Virus record (IMG/VR): IMGVR_UViG_2740892219_000011
Length of the DNA: 33,830 bases
DNA from: a virus
Taxonomy: Duplodnaviria; Heunggongvirae; Uroviricota; Caudoviricetes
Reading direction: 5' to 3' (one strand)
Part shown: positions 9,683-33,830 of the stretch, in pieces
How the letters are laid out: the number at the start of each line of letters is the position of its first letter
How positions within the stretch are numbered: the first letter of the stretch is position 1
Made by a program: the position numbers and the translations under genes
The notes under the pieces: model-generated
Seen by the model: the letters and a program-made list of their open reading frames with translations, nothing else
What the model was told of the DNA's origin: nothing
Database searches by the model: none

Positions 9683-10105
9683 ATGCAGCATGATTTATTT
9701 GAACACGATCCGGCAATTCGCCAGTTAATCGGACATATTGATAACATCCCGGCCCCGGAACTGGAATCACGCTGGCCCCGTTCGGTGGTTGATCTGATTG
9801 ATGTTCTGGAAAACGAACTGAAACGCCAGAACGTCAGCAATCCCCGTGAACTTGCCCGTAAACAGGCCGTTGCCCTGTCATGTTTTCTGGGTGGACGGCA
9901 GTTTTACATCCCCTGCGGCGATACGATCCTGACCGCGTTACGCGACGATTTGCTTTACTGCCAGTTTAATGGTCGTAACATGGAAGAACTGCGTCGCCAG
10001 TACCGCCTGTCCCAGCCGCAGATCTACCAGATTATTGCCCGCCAGAGAAAGCTGCATACACGACGTCATCAGCCTGATCTGTTCTCACCTGAAAGCCCAA
10101 AATAA
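9683..10105 (+). CDS. C: C late-gene transcriptional activator (Mor/C family), 140 aa
   Basis: Paralog of mor (shared C-terminal DNA-binding region); located just upstream of the lysis and late genes. Confidence 0.9.
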   Translation: MQHDLFEHDPAIRQLIGHIDNIPAPELESRWPRSVVDLIDVLENELKRQNVSNPRELARKQAVALSCFLGGRQFYIPCGDTILTALRDDLLYCQFNGRNMEELRRQYRLSQPQIYQIIARQRKLHTRRHQPDLFSPESPK

Positions 10106-10126
10106 CCGGCATCCTGCCGGTTATTT
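10104..10126 (+). terminator. Hairpin, probable terminator of the middle transcript
   Basis: AACCGGCA-TCC-TGCCGGTT stem-loop overlapping the C stop, followed by TTATTT (weak U-tract). Confidence 0.5.
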
Positions 10127-10196
10127 CCTGTCACCATAATCCCGCATCTGCCACCTGATTTTTTAGACTGCCATCAGAGCATTTTTTCAGGGAAGC
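10127..10196 (+). promoter_or_regulatory. Candidate C-dependent late promoter upstream of lys
   Basis: Contains CATAATCCCGC...TTTTTT at 10134-10165, similar to motifs upstream of I and of the tape-measure gene. Confidence 0.5.
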
Positions 10197-10715
10197 ATGA
10201 TGGCGGGGATACCAAAAAAACTGAAAGCCACACTGCTGGCTGTAACGATTGCCGGTGGCGGTGTGGGTGGTTATCAGGAAATGACCCGTCAGTCTCTGAT
10301 CCATCTGGAAAATATCGCTTATATGCCTTACCGCGATATTGCCGGTGTGCTTACGGTCTGTGTGGGACATACCGGGCCGGATATCGAAATGCGCCGTTAC
10401 AGCCATGCGGAGTGTATGGCTCTCCTCGACAGTGATTTAAAACCGGTTTATGCGGCAATCGATCGTCTTGTCAGGGTGCCGCTGACGCCATATCAGAAAA
10501 CGGCGCTGGCAACGTTTATTTTCAACACTGGTGTTACCGCATTCAGTAAATCAACGCTGCTGAAAAAACTCAATGCCGGTGATTACGCCGGAGCGCGTGA
10601 CCAGATGGCCCGCTGGGTGTTTGCCGCAGGCCATAAATGGAAAGGACTGATGAACCGTCGCGAAGTGGAAATGGCAATCTGGAATATCAGGGGGGCGGAT
10701 GACCTTCGCAAGTAA
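10197..10715 (+). CDS. lys: Endolysin, T4-lysozyme-like with N-terminal signal-anchor-release (SAR) domain, 172 aa
   Basis: Catalytic spacing E-8aa-D-5aa-T in ENIAYMPYRDIAGVLT; N-terminal weakly hydrophobic Gly/Ala-rich segment KATLLAVTIAGGGVGG typical of SAR endolysins. Confidence 0.85.
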   Translation: MMAGIPKKLKATLLAVTIAGGGVGGYQEMTRQSLIHLENIAYMPYRDIAGVLTVCVGHTGPDIEMRRYSHAECMALLDSDLKPVYAAIDRLVRVPLTPYQKTALATFIFNTGVTAFSKSTLLKKLNAGDYAGARDQMARWVFAAGHKWKGLMNRREVEMAIWNIRGADDLRK

Positions 10716-15812: not shown

Positions 15813-17112
15813 TCTGGCGTATGCCGCACGCCTCCCGCCAAAGGAGGCTGTCGCGTATTTCCGCGCCAAAGGTTACAACATCACCTGGAACTGGTACGAA
15901 CAACTGGCAGACGCGCACGCCTGCGCCTTTACCGTTGCCAAAGCCACCCGGATGGATGTACTGACCACAATCCGTGAGGAAGTGGAGCGGGCTGTCAGTG
16001 AAGGCATCACCCGTGAGGAATTTACCCGCACACTTGCCCCCCGGCTGCAAAAACTCGGATGGTGGGGAAAACAAATCATCGTGGATGCAGACGGAAACGC
16101 AAAGGTAATCGAGCTGGGCAGTCCGCGTCGTCTGGCAACCATTTATAACGTCAATACCCGTACGGCGTATGGGGCAGGACGTTATGCGCAGATGATGAAT
16201 ACCGCCGATTTGTACCCGTACTGGCAGTACGTTGCCGTTATGGATGGCAGAACACGCCCGGAACATGCGCGGCTGCACAATATGGTTTTCCGGTATGACG
16301 ACATTTTCTGGCAGACGCATTACCCGCCCAATGGCTGGAACTGCCGCTGTCGCGTCCGGGCGCTGTCTGCGGCCCGCATGAAAGAACTGGGGCTACAGGT
16401 CAGTTATGGTACGTCATTCATGAATACCCGCGAAGTGGATGCCGGTACGGATGAAAGCACCGGAGAGATTTTCCGCACATCGTCAACCACGTTTGACAAC
16501 GGTCGGGTAAAAATGACGCCAGATGTGGGCTGGTCATATAACCCCGGTTCGGCGGCATTTGGTACGGATCAGGCACTGATTCGAAAACTGGTGGAAGTTC
16601 GTGACGCGCAGCTGCGTGAGCAGGTTGTTCAGACGCTGAATAACAGCCGGGAGCGTCAGCTTGCTTTTTCCCTCTGGTTTAAACGTCTGGCGAAATCACG
16701 CCGGGCCGGACATGAGGTCCGTACGCTGGGTTTTATGACGGGATCCGTGGCGGAGGCCGTATATCAGCGCACCGGGAATATGCCAGCCCGTCTGCTTGTG
16801 ATGAACGGGAAAAGTCTGGCGACCACTGCTGATGCCGCCCTGAAACCGGAGGATTTACAGCGTCTGCCGTCGCTGATGGCAAAACCACAGGCGGTATTGT
16901 GGGACAGGGAGAACCACCAGTTGCTGTATGTTGTGGCAACCCGCGACGGCACTGCAAAAGTTGTGGTCAGAACATCGCAGGCTGTCAGCAAACAGAATGA
17001 CCGGGCGGATGTGCTGGTCAGTATCAGCCGCGTATCTGCACAGTCGCTTGAAGCCGCGATTGCTGACGGGATGATTGACATACTGGAGGGGCATGTGGAG
17101 GTGAATAAGTGA
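15793..17112 (+). CDS. F: Mu F-like head morphogenesis / minor capsid protein, about 439 aa
   Basis: Follows portal; first ATG at 15793 (the track ORF begins at GTG 15757). Confidence 0.8.
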   Translation: MPQQTIDLAYAARLPPKEAVAYFRAKGYNITWNWYEQLADAHACAFTVAKATRMDVLTTIREEVERAVSEGITREEFTRTLAPRLQKLGWWGKQIIVDADGNAKVIELGSPRRLATIYNVNTRTAYGAGRYAQMMNTADLYPYWQYVAVMDGRTRPEHARLHNMVFRYDDIFWQTHYPPNGWNCRCRVRALSAARMKELGLQVSYGTSFMNTREVDAGTDESTGEIFRTSSTTFDNGRVKMTPDVGWSYNPGSAAFGTDQALIRKLVEVRDAQLREQVVQTLNNSRERQLAFSLWFKRLAKSRRAGHEVRTLGFMTGSVAEAVYQRTGNMPARLLVMNGKSLATTADAALKPEDLQRLPSLMAKPQAVLWDRENHQLLYVVATRDGTAKVVVRTSQAVSKQNDRADVLVSISRVSAQSLEAAIADGMIDILEGHVEVNK

Positions 17113-17579
17113 GTCTTGATATGAACGTTGCCGTGGATGTGCGACGTATTCAGCTTGCACTGGATGAACTGGGAACCGTTACACGTGACCGCGCCATTCC
17201 CCGTGTGATGGCTGCGGCGCTGCTGTCATCCACGGAACAGGCATTTGAACGGCAGGCAGACCCGGATACAGGGAAAGGCTGGGAAGCGTGGAGCGATTCG
17301 TGGCAGGCATGGCGTCAGGATCATGGTTTTGTTCCGGGCAGTATCCTTACCCTGCATGGCGATCTGGCACGCAGCATTACCACCGATTATGGACAGGATT
17401 ATGCCCTTATTGGTTCGCCAAAAATTTATGCTGCCATTCATCAGTGGGGCGGTACACCCGATATGGCACCCCGCCCGGCAGGCGTTCCTGCGCGTCCTTA
17501 TATGGGGCTGGATAAGACCGGGGAACAGGAAATTTTTGATGCCATCAGAAAACGCGTCAGCGCCGCTCTGAGGCAATAA
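17109..17579 (+). CDS. G: Virion morphogenesis protein G, 156 aa
   Basis: Size and position between F and the protease gene; ATGA start overlap. Confidence 0.8.
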   Translation: MSLDMNVAVDVRRIQLALDELGTVTRDRAIPRVMAAALLSSTEQAFERQADPDTGKGWEAWSDSWQAWRQDHGFVPGSILTLHGDLARSITTDYGQDYALIGSPKIYAAIHQWGGTPDMAPRPAGVPARPYMGLDKTGEQEIFDAIRKRVSAALRQ

Positions 17580-17775
17580 ACTGAATCAGACATGAAATCA
17601 GCCGCACAGATTTTTTAAAACGCGCCACGGGATTTTTAAACCGGTATTTAACGGTGTATGAATCCCGTTTTATCTTCCTTCCACTTTCTTTCTCCATTAC
17701 TCAAATAGCATAACCCCAGATTTTCCCGCACCTCCCGCAAACTGACTGCTCACAAACCATGATGAGCAGCAGGAC
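17580..17775 (+). promoter_or_regulatory. Long G-I intergenic region: candidate C-dependent late promoter and possible central strong gyrase site
   Basis: 196-bp non-coding gap in an otherwise tightly packed operon; contains CATAACCCCAGATTTTCCCGC at 17709-17729; lies roughly at the genome centre. Confidence 0.5.
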
Positions 17776-18861
17776 ATGAAAAAACACGCGATTGGCATTG
17801 CCGCACTGAGTGCGCTGTCCATTGACGATGACGGCTGGTGCCAGCTATTGCCTGCCGGTCATTTCAGTGCCCGTGATGGTCGTCCGTTTGATGTGACAGA
17901 CGGTCAGGGGTGGTTCATCGACGGTGAGATTGCCGGGCGTCTGGTTGAAGGCGTTCGCGCGCTCAACCAGGACGTGCTGATTGATTACGAGCATAACCAG
18001 CTACGTAAGGACAAAGGATTACCCCCGGAACAACTCGTCGCGGCTGGCTGGTTTAACGCCGATGAAATGCAGTGGCGTGAAGGTGAAGGGTTATTTATCC
18101 ACCCACGCTGGACGGCGGCGGCCCAGCAGCGCATCGATGACGGCGAATTTGGTTATCTCTCTGCGGTTTTTCCGTATGACACCGCCACCGGTGCAGTGCT
18201 GCAAATCCGCCTTGCTGCGCTGACCAATGACCCCGGTGCCACCGGCATGAAAAAGCTGACCGCACTGGCGGCAGACCTTCCCAACATCCTTCAACAGGAG
18301 AACAAACCCATGAATGAAACGCTGCGCAAGCTGCTTGCGCGTCTTGGGGTGACGGTCCCCGAAAATGCAGACATCACCGATGAACAGGCCAGCGCGGCCC
18401 TGAGTGCGCTTGATGCGCTCGAAACAGATGCCGGAAAAGTGGCGGCGTTGTCTGCCGAACTGGAAAAGGCACAGAAAGCCGCCGTTGACCTGACGAAATA
18501 CGTCCCGGTGGAAAGCTACAACGCCCTGCGTGATGAACTGGCACAGGCGACTGCACAAAGCGCCACAGCAAGCCTGAGCGCCGTTCTGGACAAGGCGGAA
18601 CAGGAAGGCCGCATTTTCAAAAGCGAACGTACCTATCTGGAACAGCTTGGCGGTCAGATTGGCGTGGCGGCACTGTCGGCACAGCTTGAGAAAAAACAGC
18701 CTATCGCTGCGTTATCTGCCATGCAGACCACCACAGCGAAAATCCCGTCGCAGGAAAAAACGGCGGTGGCGGTGCTGTCTGCTGATGAACAGGCAGCAGT
18801 GAAGGCGCTCGGCATTACAGAGGCTGAGTATCTGAAAATGAAACAGGAACAAGAAAAATGA
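17776..18861 (+). CDS. I: Head maturation protease / scaffold fusion protein, 361 aa
   Basis: Position between G and the major capsid gene; Ala/Gln/Glu-rich helical C-terminal half typical of scaffold domains. Confidence 0.85.
   Translation: MKKHAIGIAALSALSIDDDGWCQLLPAGHFSARDGRPFDVTDGQGWFIDGEIAGRLVEGVRALNQDVLIDYEHNQLRKDKGLPPEQLVAAGWFNADEMQWREGEGLFIHPRWTAAAQQRIDDGEFGYLSAVFPYDTATGAVLQIRLAALTNDPGATGMKKLTALAADLPNILQQENKPMNETLRKLLARLGVTVPENADITDEQASAALSALDALETDAGKVAALSAELEKAQKAAVDLTKYVPVESYNALRDELAQATAQSATASLSAVLDKAEQEGRIFKSERTYLEQLGGQIGVAALSAQLEKKQPIAALSAMQTTTAKIPSQEKTAVAVLSADEQAAVKALGITEAEYLKMKQEQEK
18310..18861 (+). CDS. Z: Candidate nested scaffold protein from an in-frame internal start within I
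   Basis: Internal ATG at 18310 preceded by AGGAGAA with suitable spacing; Mu is known to express Z from within I. Start not verified. Confidence 0.4.
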   Translation: MNETLRKLLARLGVTVPENADITDEQASAALSALDALETDAGKVAALSAELEKAQKAAVDLTKYVPVESYNALRDELAQATAQSATASLSAVLDKAEQEGRIFKSERTYLEQLGGQIGVAALSAQLEKKQPIAALSAMQTTTAKIPSQEKTAVAVLSADEQAAVKALGITEAEYLKMKQEQEK

Positions 18862-19775: not shown

Positions 19776-19783
19776 CCGTCGTT

Positions 19784-19807
19784 AAAAGGCGGTTCAGGCC
19801 GCCTTTT
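19784..19807 (+). terminator. Hairpin after the capsid gene (terminator or attenuator)
   Basis: AAAAGGCGG-TTCAGG-CCGCCTTTT perfect stem immediately after the T stop. Confidence 0.5.
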
Positions 19808-19841
19808 AACCTGATTTAAAGGAAAAGGAGGAGCATGTGTT

Positions 19842-25927: not shown

Positions 25928-27415
25928 ATGTTTGAAGATGCTTTAAATGCCGTTAATGCTGTCCGGGATAAAATCAGCGGTGGTAAGAAAACAACCGGCA
26001 AAGGCACGTTCCGTAACGTGCCGTTTCTCGTCATCGAGGAGCAAAAACAGGCTGGCGGACGTCGCCTGGTTAAACGCGAGTACCCGTTACGTGATACCGG
26101 CGGCGTCAATGACCTGGGGAAAAAGCTTCGCTCCCGTACATTCAGCGCCTGCATTCTGAACAGCAACGCAGAAACAGCCAGAGATGAAGCGGGTGCGCTG
26201 ATGGATGCTCTTGATGCTCCGGGTAGCGGTGAGCTGGTACATCCTGATTTCGGCACTGTGGACGTCATGGTGGATTCATGGGAATGCCGCACTAAAGCGG
26301 ATGAACTGAATTATTACGCGTTCACCGTTACCGTTTATCCGTCGTTGCAGGATACTGCCCCGGACGCAGAGACAGACACCAGTGCAGCCGTACCTGCACA
26401 GGCCGTTGCTGTAACCGGTTCTCTGGGAGATACGCTGTCCTCTGTCTGGCAAACCGTAAAAGATGGCACTGCGGCGGCAACCGCCGTGATGGAAGCTGTA
26501 ACCGGTGTCATCGATGATATCAGTGATGCGGTGGACAATCTGGGGGTTACGCAGACTGTCAGCGGTCTGATGGGATCGCTTTCTGCGATGAAAGGCTCTG
26601 TGACCAGCCTGATTAACCAGCCTGCCATGCTGGCCTCCTCGCTGATGGGGGCGCTGTCCGGCGTTTCATCGTTATGCGATACCCGGACAGCATTTTCCAC
26701 ATGGAACCGTCTGGCGCAGCGATTCGAACCTCGCCATGCCGCCACCGCAGGCAGACAGGGGACAATCACAACCTCGTACAACAGTCCGGTTGCAGAAAAA
26801 AATATTGCCACACTGAACTACGTCATGCTGGCAGCGGCGCAGACATACCGGGCAGAAGCTGCCAGTCAGGCACTGACTGCGGCACTGGATTTCAGTCGCC
26901 GGATGGATAATGCCGCCCGTGCACCTGTACTGGATGCCCCGTCCACCACAACCGGCACAGCCAGCGGGGCCAGCAGCACATCTGCTACTGTCACACAGGG
27001 ACAGTTACAGTTAACTGCCATAACCCCGGACGGCGGCTTTTCACAGGTATCCTTTTCAGACAGTGGTACAGCCACGCCCCCGGTATTTGAAAGTGTGTCC
27101 GATATCGGAAAAACAGCCGCCATGCTGGGGGCTGCACTGGATACCGTCATTCTGACGGCATCTGAGCAGGGCTTTTCGACAGACAGCGTTCAGCTTACGC
27201 AACTGCGTCTGCTGGTTGTTGCCGACCTGGAAAAACGCGGGCTGCAACTGGCGGGCAGTGAAACGCACCGCCTGCCGGAGACGATGCCTGCAATGGTGGC
27301 CCTGTACCGTTACACAGGAAACAGCCGGAACTGGCAACGGCTGGCCCGCAGGAACGGTATCAGCAACCCGTTGTTTGTTCCCGGTGGCGTCAGTATTGAG
27401 GTGATTAATGAGTAA
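25928..27415 (+). CDS. N: DNA circularization protein N-like tail protein, 495 aa
   Basis: Position after the tape measure; size consistent with Mu N as I recall. Confidence 0.65.
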
Positions 27416-31178: not shown

Positions 31179-32299
31179 TGTTTTATATTGATAACGACAG
31201 CGGCGTAACCGTCATGCCGCCCGTATCCGCCCAGCGTAGTGCTATCGTTCGCTGGTTTTCAGAAGGTGACGGGAATAATGTTATCACATGGCCCGGCATG
31301 GACTGGTTTAATATTGTGCAGGCGGAGTTATTAAACACGCTGGAAGAAGCCGGTATTCAACCGGATAAAACAAAATTAAACCAGCTTGCACTGTCCATTA
31401 AAGCCATTATGAGCAATAACGCGCTGCTGATAAAAAATAACCTCAGCGAAATTAAAACTGCCGGGGCATCAGCACAGCGTACAGCACGTGAAAATCTGGA
31501 TATCTGGGATGCCAGCCTGAACAAAAAAGGACTCGTTCAGCTAACCAGTGCCACTGACAGCCCCAGTGAAACGCTGGCAGCCACCGCAAAAGCGGTGAAA
31601 ATTGCGATGGATAAAAACCTCGGTTTACAGGAAACTGTAAAATTAGCTTCGGAAGCGTTATCAACATATGGCGGGGTGGTTAACGGTGATGTGATTATCA
31701 AGGGCATTCTCTCGTTAATTGGGAATGAATTACTTATTGAAAAAGATAATGGCTTTTCTGGTATTCACATCAGAAACAAGAGCACGGTTGCAGGAAGTGC
31801 AAATGGAGTCGATTTCTCATTTGGCGGAGCGATTATGTCATCGCTCATTTGCGGAATAATGGAAAATGGCGCGAACTACATAGATGTTGCATTGTCTCCG
31901 GCAGGCAATATTTCTGACCGCCGCAAGGTTGCATTTACTTTGGATGGAAATATCAGGCAGTTAATTCCCCAGAATGGATGGAGCATTCAGGGGTATACAA
32001 AAAACAGTGATTTTACCCAGGCGATGGCCGATGCTGGCTGGGTACGTTTTCCAAATGGCATCATTTTTCAATGGTGTTGGGGAAATACTGATGCCAGTGG
32101 CTGGGCATCTGCCCCGTTTCCTGTTGGTTGGCCTGTTCGTTGCTTTGGTTTGTTAGCCTGTAACGTTGCTGGTGACTCGATAGCAAGTGCAATTGCGGGT
32201 GTTAAAAGATTAAATGATCGCGATATGCAGGTCACGTTAATGGAAAGGTCTGGGGTTGCTGTTTCTAAACCATTCTTCTGTATTGGTGTGGGGTGTTAA
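31178..32299 (+). CDS. S: Tail fibre protein S, with constant part and G-segment variable part, 373 aa
   Basis: Followed by a tail-fibre assembly gene and by inverted U'-S' on the minus strand; a gix-like recombination site lies inside the ORF. Confidence 0.8.
   Translation: MFYIDNDSGVTVMPPVSAQRSAIVRWFSEGDGNNVITWPGMDWFNIVQAELLNTLEEAGIQPDKTKLNQLALSIKAIMSNNALLIKNNLSEIKTAGASAQRTARENLDIWDASLNKKGLVQLTSATDSPSETLAATAKAVKIAMDKNLGLQETVKLASEALSTYGGVVNGDVIIKGILSLIGNELLIEKDNGFSGIHIRNKSTVAGSANGVDFSFGGAIMSSLICGIMENGANYIDVALSPAGNISDRRKVAFTLDGNIRQLIPQNGWSIQGYTKNSDFTQAMADAGWVRFPNGIIFQWCWGNTDASGWASAPFPVGWPVRCFGLLACNVAGDSIASAIAGVKRLNDRDMQVTLMERSGVAVSKPFFCIGVGC
31609..31634. other. gix-like DNA-invertase crossover site (left boundary of the invertible G segment) inside S
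   Basis: Reverse complement reads TTCCTGTAAACCGAGGTTTTTATCC, closely resembling the Gin/Hin recombination site consensus as I recall it. Confidence 0.6.
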
Positions 32300-32301
32300 T
32301 C

Positions 32302-32778
32302 ATGTCCAGTAAAATATTCTATAGTGCCAGGAATAATACGTTTTTCTTTGAATCCATGAAACCGGACTATGAAAAATCAGGCGCATGGCCTGACGATTTG
32401 GTGGCAGTCACAAACGATATGTATGAAGAGTTTACGGGAAGACCGCCAGAGGGAAAAAAGAGAGGCCGTGATGAATCTGGTTTCCCTACATGGATTGATG
32501 TATCAGAACCAACAACAGAGCAGTTAATCGCATTAAAAGAGCAGAAGAAAAAGGATTTAGCCGAGATTGCGAACACAGAAATTGCCTGGCGGCAGGATGC
32601 TGTTGACGCAGGGATGGCGACAGAAGCAGAAATCACTGTACTGGCTGAATGGAAAAAATATCGTGTGCTGCTTATGCGTATTGATACATCAACCGCGACG
32701 GATATTGAGTGGCCCGCTGTTCCAGACGAACAAAGCGGCAAAGAGAGCAGCGCAGAGGATGTGAAAACGACGCTATAA
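32302..32778 (+). CDS. U: Tail fibre assembly protein, 158 aa
   Basis: ATG 32302 just after the S stop (the track ORF begins at GTG 32293); small acidic protein downstream of the fibre gene. Confidence 0.75.
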   Translation: MSSKIFYSARNNTFFFESMKPDYEKSGAWPDDLVAVTNDMYEEFTGRPPEGKKRGRDESGFPTWIDVSEPTTEQLIALKEQKKKDLAEIANTEIAWRQDAVDAGMATEAEITVLAEWKKYRVLLMRIDTSTATDIEWPAVPDEQSGKESSAEDVKTTL

Positions 32779-32882
32779 TACCAGCACAATTATTATCATT
32801 TTTGTTATTTTGTATTTCCTTGCTTTCCGCAGTCATGTGGATATGGAAAAGCCTGGATGGCCACAAAAGCCTGAGTAAAATT

Positions 32883-32902
32883 AAGGCCCGATAACGGGCC
32901 TT
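32883..32902. terminator. Hairpin between convergent U and U' (probable terminator)
   Basis: AAGGCCCG-ATAA-CGGGCCTT perfect stem immediately 3' of the U' stop on the minus strand, flanked by A/T runs. Confidence 0.55.
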
Positions 32903-32904
32903 TC

Positions 32905-33438
32905 TCATTCTGGTTGTTCGGGGAATGTTACCGGCAGGCTGGAGGTGTCTGTGGATTCGACTTTCTGCGCATAGAGCATCCACTCGGTTAATTTCTGTTT
33001 ATTCTCATCGGAAATGATGCCCAGCCGTAGCTGTGAGTCCCATAGCTGGGTTTTATCCCTGACAAGTTGCAACAGGCTTTGTTTTTCATTCTCTGCCTGC
33101 TGCCTCTGCTCTTCCCCGGTATAAGTTCGCTTTATCACCGCACCATCTTTGAACATCCATTTACCCGAAATATCAGCCCGGCGATTTGCTGTAATATCAG
33201 GTAATTCAACGACGCTTGCGCCTTCTGGATTAATTGCTGAAACATCCTTTTCAATACAAATAATAACGCCGTTATGGTCATAGACCATTTTCAACGTATC
33301 AGACTGGAAATTCTTTTGTTCCTCATACCAGTTTTTTCCATCCTCTGTATAAAGCCATTTGATGTTAAATTGCTTTGTTAGCTGATATTGCTCTTTTGTT
33401 TTAGGATTGCCAGCAGTAATGTTTTTTAAGTGCATCAT
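32905..33438 (-). CDS. U': Alternative tail fibre assembly protein, 177 aa
   Basis: Minus-strand ORF inside the G segment, typical Tfa-like protein, convergent with U. Confidence 0.8.
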   Translation of the reverse strand: MMHLKNITAGNPKTKEQYQLTKQFNIKWLYTEDGKNWYEEQKNFQSDTLKMVYDHNGVIICIEKDVSAINPEGASVVELPDITANRRADISGKWMFKDGAVIKRTYTGEEQRQQAENEKQSLLQLVRDKTQLWDSQLRLGIISDENKQKLTEWMLYAQKVESTDTSSLPVTFPEQPE

Positions 33439-33440
33439 CG

Positions 33441-33830
33441 TTAAATACTCCCCGCGTTATACCACGTCCCATTAATGCAATACTGAATTGGCCTTGCCTG
33501 AGTTGTATCAATTAATTCGTCACGGTTTCCGTTAACTGAACCTGTAACGACATAACCTGACTTATCAGACCAACCAGGCCCATTCCATGTTTGAACAGAT
33601 GACAGTCCTCCTAAACGGACACCTGTAATAAATCGTGAATTACATTCCGCTTTAGTATATGCACCAACATCTCCTGCTGAAGGTTTTCTGGTGGTGGTGT
33701 AAAATTCGGACCAGTCGGCTTCAAAACCATAACCATCACGGGCTGAACGATAAAAGATACCGCCGTTCTTATAATTCACGCGGAACTGTACTGCCGGACA
33801 ACTACCCGTATTCATATTGAAATGAAGAAT
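33441..33830 (-). CDS. S': Alternative tail fibre variable C-terminal part, partial; 5' end lies beyond the window
   Basis: Minus-strand ORF ending at 33441; the frame stays open to the window edge. Gly/Asn/Thr-rich receptor-binding-like C-terminus, unrelated to the C-terminus of S. Confidence 0.7.
   Translation of the reverse strand: MLHFNMNTGSCPAVQFRVNYKNGGIFYRSARDGYGFEADWSEFYTTTRKPSAGDVGAYTKAECNSRFITGVRLGGLSSVQTWNGPGWSDKSGYVVTGSVNGNRDELIDTTQARPIQYCINGTWYNAGSI

Follow-up and report, generated by a model that had tools for sequence, protein, structure and literature searches.

A probable Mu-type strong gyrase site, late terminator and P_I promoter between genes G and I of a Mu/D108-type phage

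The non-coding gap between the late genes G and I, together with the 3' end of G, most probably carries three elements: the strong gyrase site (SGS), the hairpin terminator of the lys-to-G transcript and the C-activated late promoter P_I. Together these would form a central node, regulatory as well as topological, of a Mu/D108-type phage, a reading to which we assign a probability of about 0.93. Coordinates throughout are those of the window, that is, the whole stretch of 33,830 nucleotides that was analysed (IMG/VR record IMGVR_UViG_2740892219_000011). The G-I feature is already known, and so is the phage family to which it belongs. Recognition of the SGS here confirms the expected central element of a Mu/D108-type genome and brings nothing new to the field.

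Judged by its sequence, the window is a Mu/D108-type transposable phage. Its first 25 kb are scored as 100.0% identical to Escherichia virus Mu_3F6 (LR595867.1, from base 489 of that record), with identities of 98.2% to D108 and 98.0% to Mu over the same stretch. A base-by-base comparison with Mu_3F6 shows six mismatches outside the inverted G segment (6467, 8488, 9439, 16678, 18283, and 18570). Window positions 31615-33830 match Mu_3F6 34959 to 32743 in reverse with 99.96% identity: the invertible G segment is flipped with respect to the closest public record. The same G-I interval is found in 44 of 5,426 complete E. coli genomes.

An earlier note, made from the sequence alone, had drawn attention to the G-I gap as unusually long, and the gap is indeed real: the TAA stop codon of G occupies 17577-17579 and the ATG of I begins at 17776, leaving 196 bp (17580-17775) between them. 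The remaining late-gene junctions from lys to U either overlap or are at most 14 bp apart (a count that includes the embedded o-spanin and the frameshifted tail-assembly chaperone), with the exception of T-gp35, which measures 66 bp in the Mu and Mu_3F6 annotations. No other non-coding gap among the late genes is as long as G-I, and T-gp35 (19776-19841) comes second; the C-lys junction is 91 bp. A predicted terminator is annotated in the T-gp35 gap in the Mu record. The description of the G-I gap as lying near the genome centre is true of the phage. In Mu_3F6, it is 17,936 bp from the gyrase cut to attL and 19,040 bp to attR, which puts the cut at fraction 0.485 of the attL-attR length; the window itself contains neither phage end. 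The corresponding fraction in Mu is 0.487.

The earlier note had also placed the gap at the position of the Mu strong gyrase site. This placement is borne out by the comparison with Mu, in which 191 of the 196 gap bases are identical and in which a gyrase cut site is annotated at this location in GenBank. Published work on Mu likewise locates the SGS between these two genes. Alignment with the Mu SGS itself, which the note had proposed as a check, gives 146 identities in 150 positions (17533-17682). The gap and the site do not coincide: the SGS occupies the left part of the gap, but it begins approximately 45 bp inside G and ends approximately 100 bp into the gap, and the right 90 bp or so consist of promoter P_I and a ribosome-binding site. 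The length of the gap is largely explained by the operon boundary (terminator, P_I, and ribosome-binding site). The step from a long gap to an SGS succeeded because of the analogy with Mu; gap length alone is no indicator of a gyrase site. The features of the interval are collected in Table 1.

Table 1. Coordinates of known, predicted and likely features in and around the G-I interval of the window.
Feature	Position	Strand	Remarks
Gene G (virion morphogenesis / Neck1 protein)	17109..17579	+	ORF; named G in the Mu, D108 and Mu_3F6 records
Predicted SGS, whole	17533..17682	.	Approximately -65 to +85 around cleavage centre 17597.5; 150-bp anatomy of PMC6463007 placed through the Mu alignment
Predicted SGS left arm (-65..-26)	17533..17572	.	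Inside the 3' end of G; identical to Mu
Predicted SGS core / G-segment (-25..+25)	17573..17622	.	Three D108-type substitutions relative to Mu
Predicted 4-nt 5' overhang AATC	17596..17599	.	Cryo-EM Gyr-Mu217 (PMC11626157) matched to the sequence; by homology
Predicted SGS right arm (+26..+85)	17623..17682	.	Phased A/T tracts; 17681 is the sole difference from Mu
Likely intrinsic terminator of the lys-to-G late transcript	17627..17676	+	Hairpin 17627-17668 and U-rich run; RNA fold; overlaps the SGS right arm
Late promoter P_I, C activator-dependent	17697..17763	+	66/67 identical to Mu P_I (17977-18043, PMID 2522923)
Ribosome-binding region of I	17764..17775	+	Mu record site 18044-18046 is window 17764-17766
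Gene I (head maturation protease; internal start for scaffold Z)	17776..18861	+	First gene of the P_I transcript

In the published SGS layout, a gate segment of 50 bp is flanked by a left arm of 40 bp and a right arm of 60 bp, and the first 40 nt or so of the right arm are essential (PMC6463007). The anatomy used here was taken from secondary accounts, and the base numbering of PMC6463007 is not fully self-consistent; Mu record coordinates were converted to the window with an offset of 280. In the cryo-EM structure of gyrase on a 217-bp Mu SGS, the scissile phosphates lie between two A's and at 5'-T/GATTT-3' (PMC11626157). The matching scissile bonds in the window are predicted at 17595^17596 (A/A) on the plus strand and at 17599^17600 (5'-T/GATTT-3') on the minus strand. 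The sequence at 17594-17603, GAAATCAGCC, would yield the same AATC overhang as Mu, and the base 2 nt 5' of the plus-strand bond is G, where Mu has A. The 'gyrase cut site' of the GenBank record (Mu 17879/17880) corresponds to window 17599/17600, i.e. to the minus-strand bond. Topo-Seq was validated with a 133-bp 'Mu SGS' fragment (Sutormin 2018), which aligns to 17532-17664 with 129/133 identity and is centred on the cut.

A/T tracts are located at 17610-17620, 17632-17640, 17645-17651 and 17668-17673, with spacings that are multiples of approximately 10.5-11 bp; the first of these tracts is in the core, just to the left of the right arm. The 60-bp periodicity power at the SGS is in the top 1% or so of the window, and by Fourier analysis it is in the top 0.3-0.5% locally, as is also the case for the lineage of the E. 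coli SE11 prophage. A scan with the 133-bp gyrase consensus, by identity or by strong/weak pattern (G+C versus A+T) at every window position on both strands, placed the SGS at rank 2,400-5,100 (approximately) of 67,396. Such string matching is a poor proxy for a position matrix: the published Mu fragment itself matches at only 42 of 133 positions, and the score was dropped as uninformative.

The interval is strongly conserved to the right of the cut. In a set of 17 close relatives (IMG/VR contigs, Mu, and the window itself), 6 of the 181 sites in 17595-17775 are variable, a proportion of 0.033, versus 0.178 at the third codon positions of F, G and I (binomial p = 2e-9; this and similar p-values are rough, as variation was counted in columns and not as independent events). 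The variable columns are evenly divided between the right side of the SGS (17595-17682, 3/88) and P_I (3/93). These counts suggest that the right arm and P_I are under purifying selection. The 13-bp patch between the G stop codon and the cut (17582-17594) is hypervariable, with 6-7 variable columns that include a 1-bp insertion in one relative (L026). A variable left patch beside a constant right arm fits reports that the left side of the SGS can be replaced without loss of function and that the right arm cannot (PMC10052514, PMC6463007, PMC13284261).

The gap differs from that of Mu at 17582, 17590, 17594, 17681, and 17697. The first four of these differences fall within the SGS alignment, and D108 has all four. 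The window carries the D108-type bases in the core (17582 T, 17590 A, and 17594 G) as well as 17681 C in the distal right arm. The core substitutions are at -16, -8, and -4 from the cleavage centre, the last of them (17594 A>G) being 2 nt from the plus-strand scissile bond. Approximately half of the natural close relatives, including D108, have the same core substitutions as the window.

These substitutions bear on a simpler account of the locus, in which the gap is an operon boundary and nothing else (the lys-G terminator followed by P_I) and the D108-type bases have disabled the gyrase site. The terminator and P_I do span approximately 17627-17763, or most of the gap, and all three core substitutions are in the gate segment, with one so close to the scissile bond. 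We nevertheless consider this account very unlikely. The window agrees with Mu in the right arm and in the right half of the core, both of them strongly conserved (17595-17680 is identical to both Mu and D108), the left side of the site is the part reported to tolerate replacement (PMC10052514, PMC6463007, PMC13284261), and the substitutions also occur in roughly half of the close relatives, among them D108, which is a viable transposable phage.

If the site is functional, as we favour, the common D108-type substitutions beside the scissile bond may alter its strength. It is conceivable, though unlikely, that the D108-type allele tunes gyrase cleavage or processivity in the manner of the laboratory nuB 'up' mutations or, alternatively, that the lys-G hairpin, through its place within the right arm, links late transcription with the loading of gyrase. 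Were the allele tuning true, the 17582-17594 patch would be a site of adaptation of Mu-like phages to host gyrase. With respect to individual bases, the widely used pMP1000-derived 'Mu SGS' fragment departs from the wild type at one position only, 17601, reading C in place of the G of the window, Mu and D108; the C is possibly a nuB allele. Position 17601 is mirror-symmetric to the window's 17594 G about the two scissile bonds. An attempt to place nuB1 and nuB103 on the window was abandoned, as the description in PMC6463007 is internally inconsistent and silent on 17601 G>C. Three natural relatives differ at 17603, 4 nt 3' of the overhang, where they read T and not C.

The right arm of the SGS overlaps the likely terminator. 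The fold of RNA 17620-17685 gives a hairpin of -19.8 kcal/mol (z = -3.3) that is followed by UUUUAUCUU, and this hairpin is the terminator predicted by TransTermHP in Mu at 17908-17953 (window 17628-17673). A simple promoter and terminator pattern scan of 17400-17900 called nothing; the hairpin was missed because its loop is longer than 8 nt. Pattern scanning likewise found no sigma-70-like promoter in the gap, as is expected for a promoter such as P_I that depends on the C activator. A gene for this activator is annotated upstream in Mu_3F6 (10171-10593, approximately window 9683-10105).

P_I contains the conserved box CATAACCCC at 17709-17717, which it has in common with P_lys (10123-10189) and P_P (27007-27073). 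P_lys and P_P carry exact CCATAAYCCCG boxes at 10134-10144 and 27018-27028, respectively, and P_P is situated inside gene N. In a search of the whole window for CCATAAYCCCS with one mismatch allowed, three occurrences were found versus 2.2 expected, and the P_I box requires a looser pattern. The putative C box at P_I is supported by its position and by homology and not by enrichment.

The earlier note had further stated that the gap holds no ORF, which is correct in substance: the only ORFs of at least 30 amino acids (aa) that touch it are three short ones on the minus strand. Two public records do annotate a small coding sequence here, a 46-aa hypothetical protein on the minus strand in Mu_3F6 (window 17557..17697) and 'gp31.5' on the plus strand in D108, and the gap could on that basis be taken to encode a small protein. 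We regard this as extremely unlikely. The ATG of the 46-aa ORF depends on T at 17697, a position that is G in 16 of 19 close relatives. The gp31.5 frame (window 17585-17713) has no ATG, GTG or TTG at the annotated start, and its sole ATG in the window (17592) opens an ORF of eight codons. Neither ORF is annotated in the curated Mu record, and the sequence pattern of the gap is one of DNA-level signals. Both small coding sequences look spurious.

In the mechanism that we propose for the SGS, host DNA gyrase would bind with the gate segment centred at approximately 17597 and would cleave with the 4-nt stagger listed in Table 1. The right arm would wrap one GyrA C-terminal domain, with A/T tracts every 10.5-11 bp or so facing the protein through the minor groove, and this wrap would present the T-segment, leading to highly processive negative supercoiling. 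As the plectoneme grows, the SGS would be at its apex, since the site is midway between the phage ends, and attL and attR would be brought together for transpososome assembly. The prophage would be kept as a separate domain through the SGS. With regard to transcription, the hairpin and U run embedded in the right arm would end the P_lys transcript after G, while P_I and the ribosome-binding site would start C-activated expression of gene I.

The gyrase part of this mechanism follows published work on Mu. The Mu SGS binds gyrase very stably and supports processive supercoiling, and its right arm lies on one GyrA C-terminal domain with A/T minor grooves toward the protein and delivers the T-segment (PMC6463007, PMC13284261, PMC11626157). 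Strong quinolone-induced gyrase cleavage at the site occurs both in vitro and in vivo (PMC10052514, PMC6379681, PMC6463007); in vivo, the cleavage is at the expected bases, and the site is the top-scoring gyrase motif of the Mu genome (PMC6379681). When the SGS is deleted, replication starts late after induction and the phage ends fail to synapse efficiently; the central position is optimal (PMC10052514, PMC3820752). Formation of a separate domain by the Mu prophage is SGS-dependent (PMC3820752). In Mu, the delay in replication amounts to tens of minutes. Gyrase binding, cleavage and a role in replication are predicted for the window's D108-type allele by homology with this work.

The phased T-tracts might instead be bound by a nucleoid protein or by some other phage factor, or a structured RNA might be encoded in the gap, and in neither case would there be a gyrase wrap signal. 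A-tract arrays can attract IHF, Fis or H-NS as well. IHF, Fis and HU play a part in the prophage domain of Mu (PMC3820752). The probability of such a role in place of gyrase wrapping is close to nil: cryo-EM and footprinting accounts place the right arm on the GyrA C-terminal domain (PMC6463007, PMC11626157), deletion of the right arm reportedly abolishes preferential gyrase activity (PMC13284261), and a search of 17400-17950 against Rfam gave no match at E<=1, which argues against a structured RNA.

The natural alleles of the patch at the left of the core could provide a ready-made panel for the study of sequence effects on gyrase cleavage. To our knowledge, the Mu SGS is the strongest gyrase site known. 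It is the standard gyrase substrate in single-molecule and cryo-EM studies, and it accounts for the way in which a 37-kb transposable prophage brings its ends together.

More distant Mu-like lineages (an E. coli SE11 prophage, an Enterobacteriaceae MAG, a STEC Mu-like prophage, and Citrobacter and related contigs) have G proteins that are 54-84% identical to that of the window. When the true start of I is used, all of them keep a G-I gap of approximately 170-200 bp, including those in which G protein identity is only 54-69%. From approximately 30 bp past the G stop codon, they have T(3-6)GAA tracts with spacings of 20-21, 11, and 10 bp, and these tracts are followed by a hairpin and T run and then by a CnTAAMCCC / CGCAAACCC promoter box. 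In the most distant of these lineages the phasing is judged by the explicit tract spacing, as the generic Fourier signal at 10-11 bp is not outstanding there (rank 7-27%). Comparison across lineages shows that the phased T-tracts and the promoter box are conserved, and it shows what varies freely.

The core has diverged in the distant lineages, most of which have a hairpin where Mu has its cleavage site; Mu-type sequences are without such a hairpin. Stable hairpins (-8 to -19 kcal/mol) occur in the first 40 bp or so past the G stop codon in L009, L008, L010, L028, L030, L031 and L033. Their stems differ by lineage yet stay paired through lineage-specific compensating changes, and a T run follows some of them. 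In the STEC type, the block GATTTTCTAACCTGTATTTAACGGG matches the Mu right arm at 22 of 28 positions. L008, of the O157/STEC type, is a Mu-like phage inserted in the Stx2c-converting phage LC727881.1. Of 5,426 complete E. coli genomes, 228 contain its G-I interval, and many of these are STEC/O157:H7. A single genome holds up to four copies, and one copy is plasmid-borne. We take L008 to be probably of the Sp18 type, which has been reported as supporting Mu replication.

In comparison with known systems, the window is closest to Mu_3F6, from which its gap is indistinguishable, and to D108, from which the gap differs only at 17697 and 17724 and which has the same three core substitutions. The records of both phages lack annotation of the SGS, the terminator and P_I and carry the doubtful small coding sequences instead. 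The likeness to the Mu SGS extends to the G-I locus, the central position, the cleavage tetranucleotide, and the adjoining terminator and P_I; the window differs in three substitutions to the left of the cut and one (17681 C) at the far end of the right arm. The pSC101 and pBR322 plasmid sites and the chromosomal REP/BIME sites are also preferred for gyrase cleavage and have a high Topo-Seq motif score (PMC6379681), but they are unrelated in sequence to the window interval and reportedly do not substitute for the Mu SGS in replication (PMC10052514). The only heterologous site reported to support Mu replication is one from a Mu-like prophage of O157:H7 Sakai (PMC10052514).
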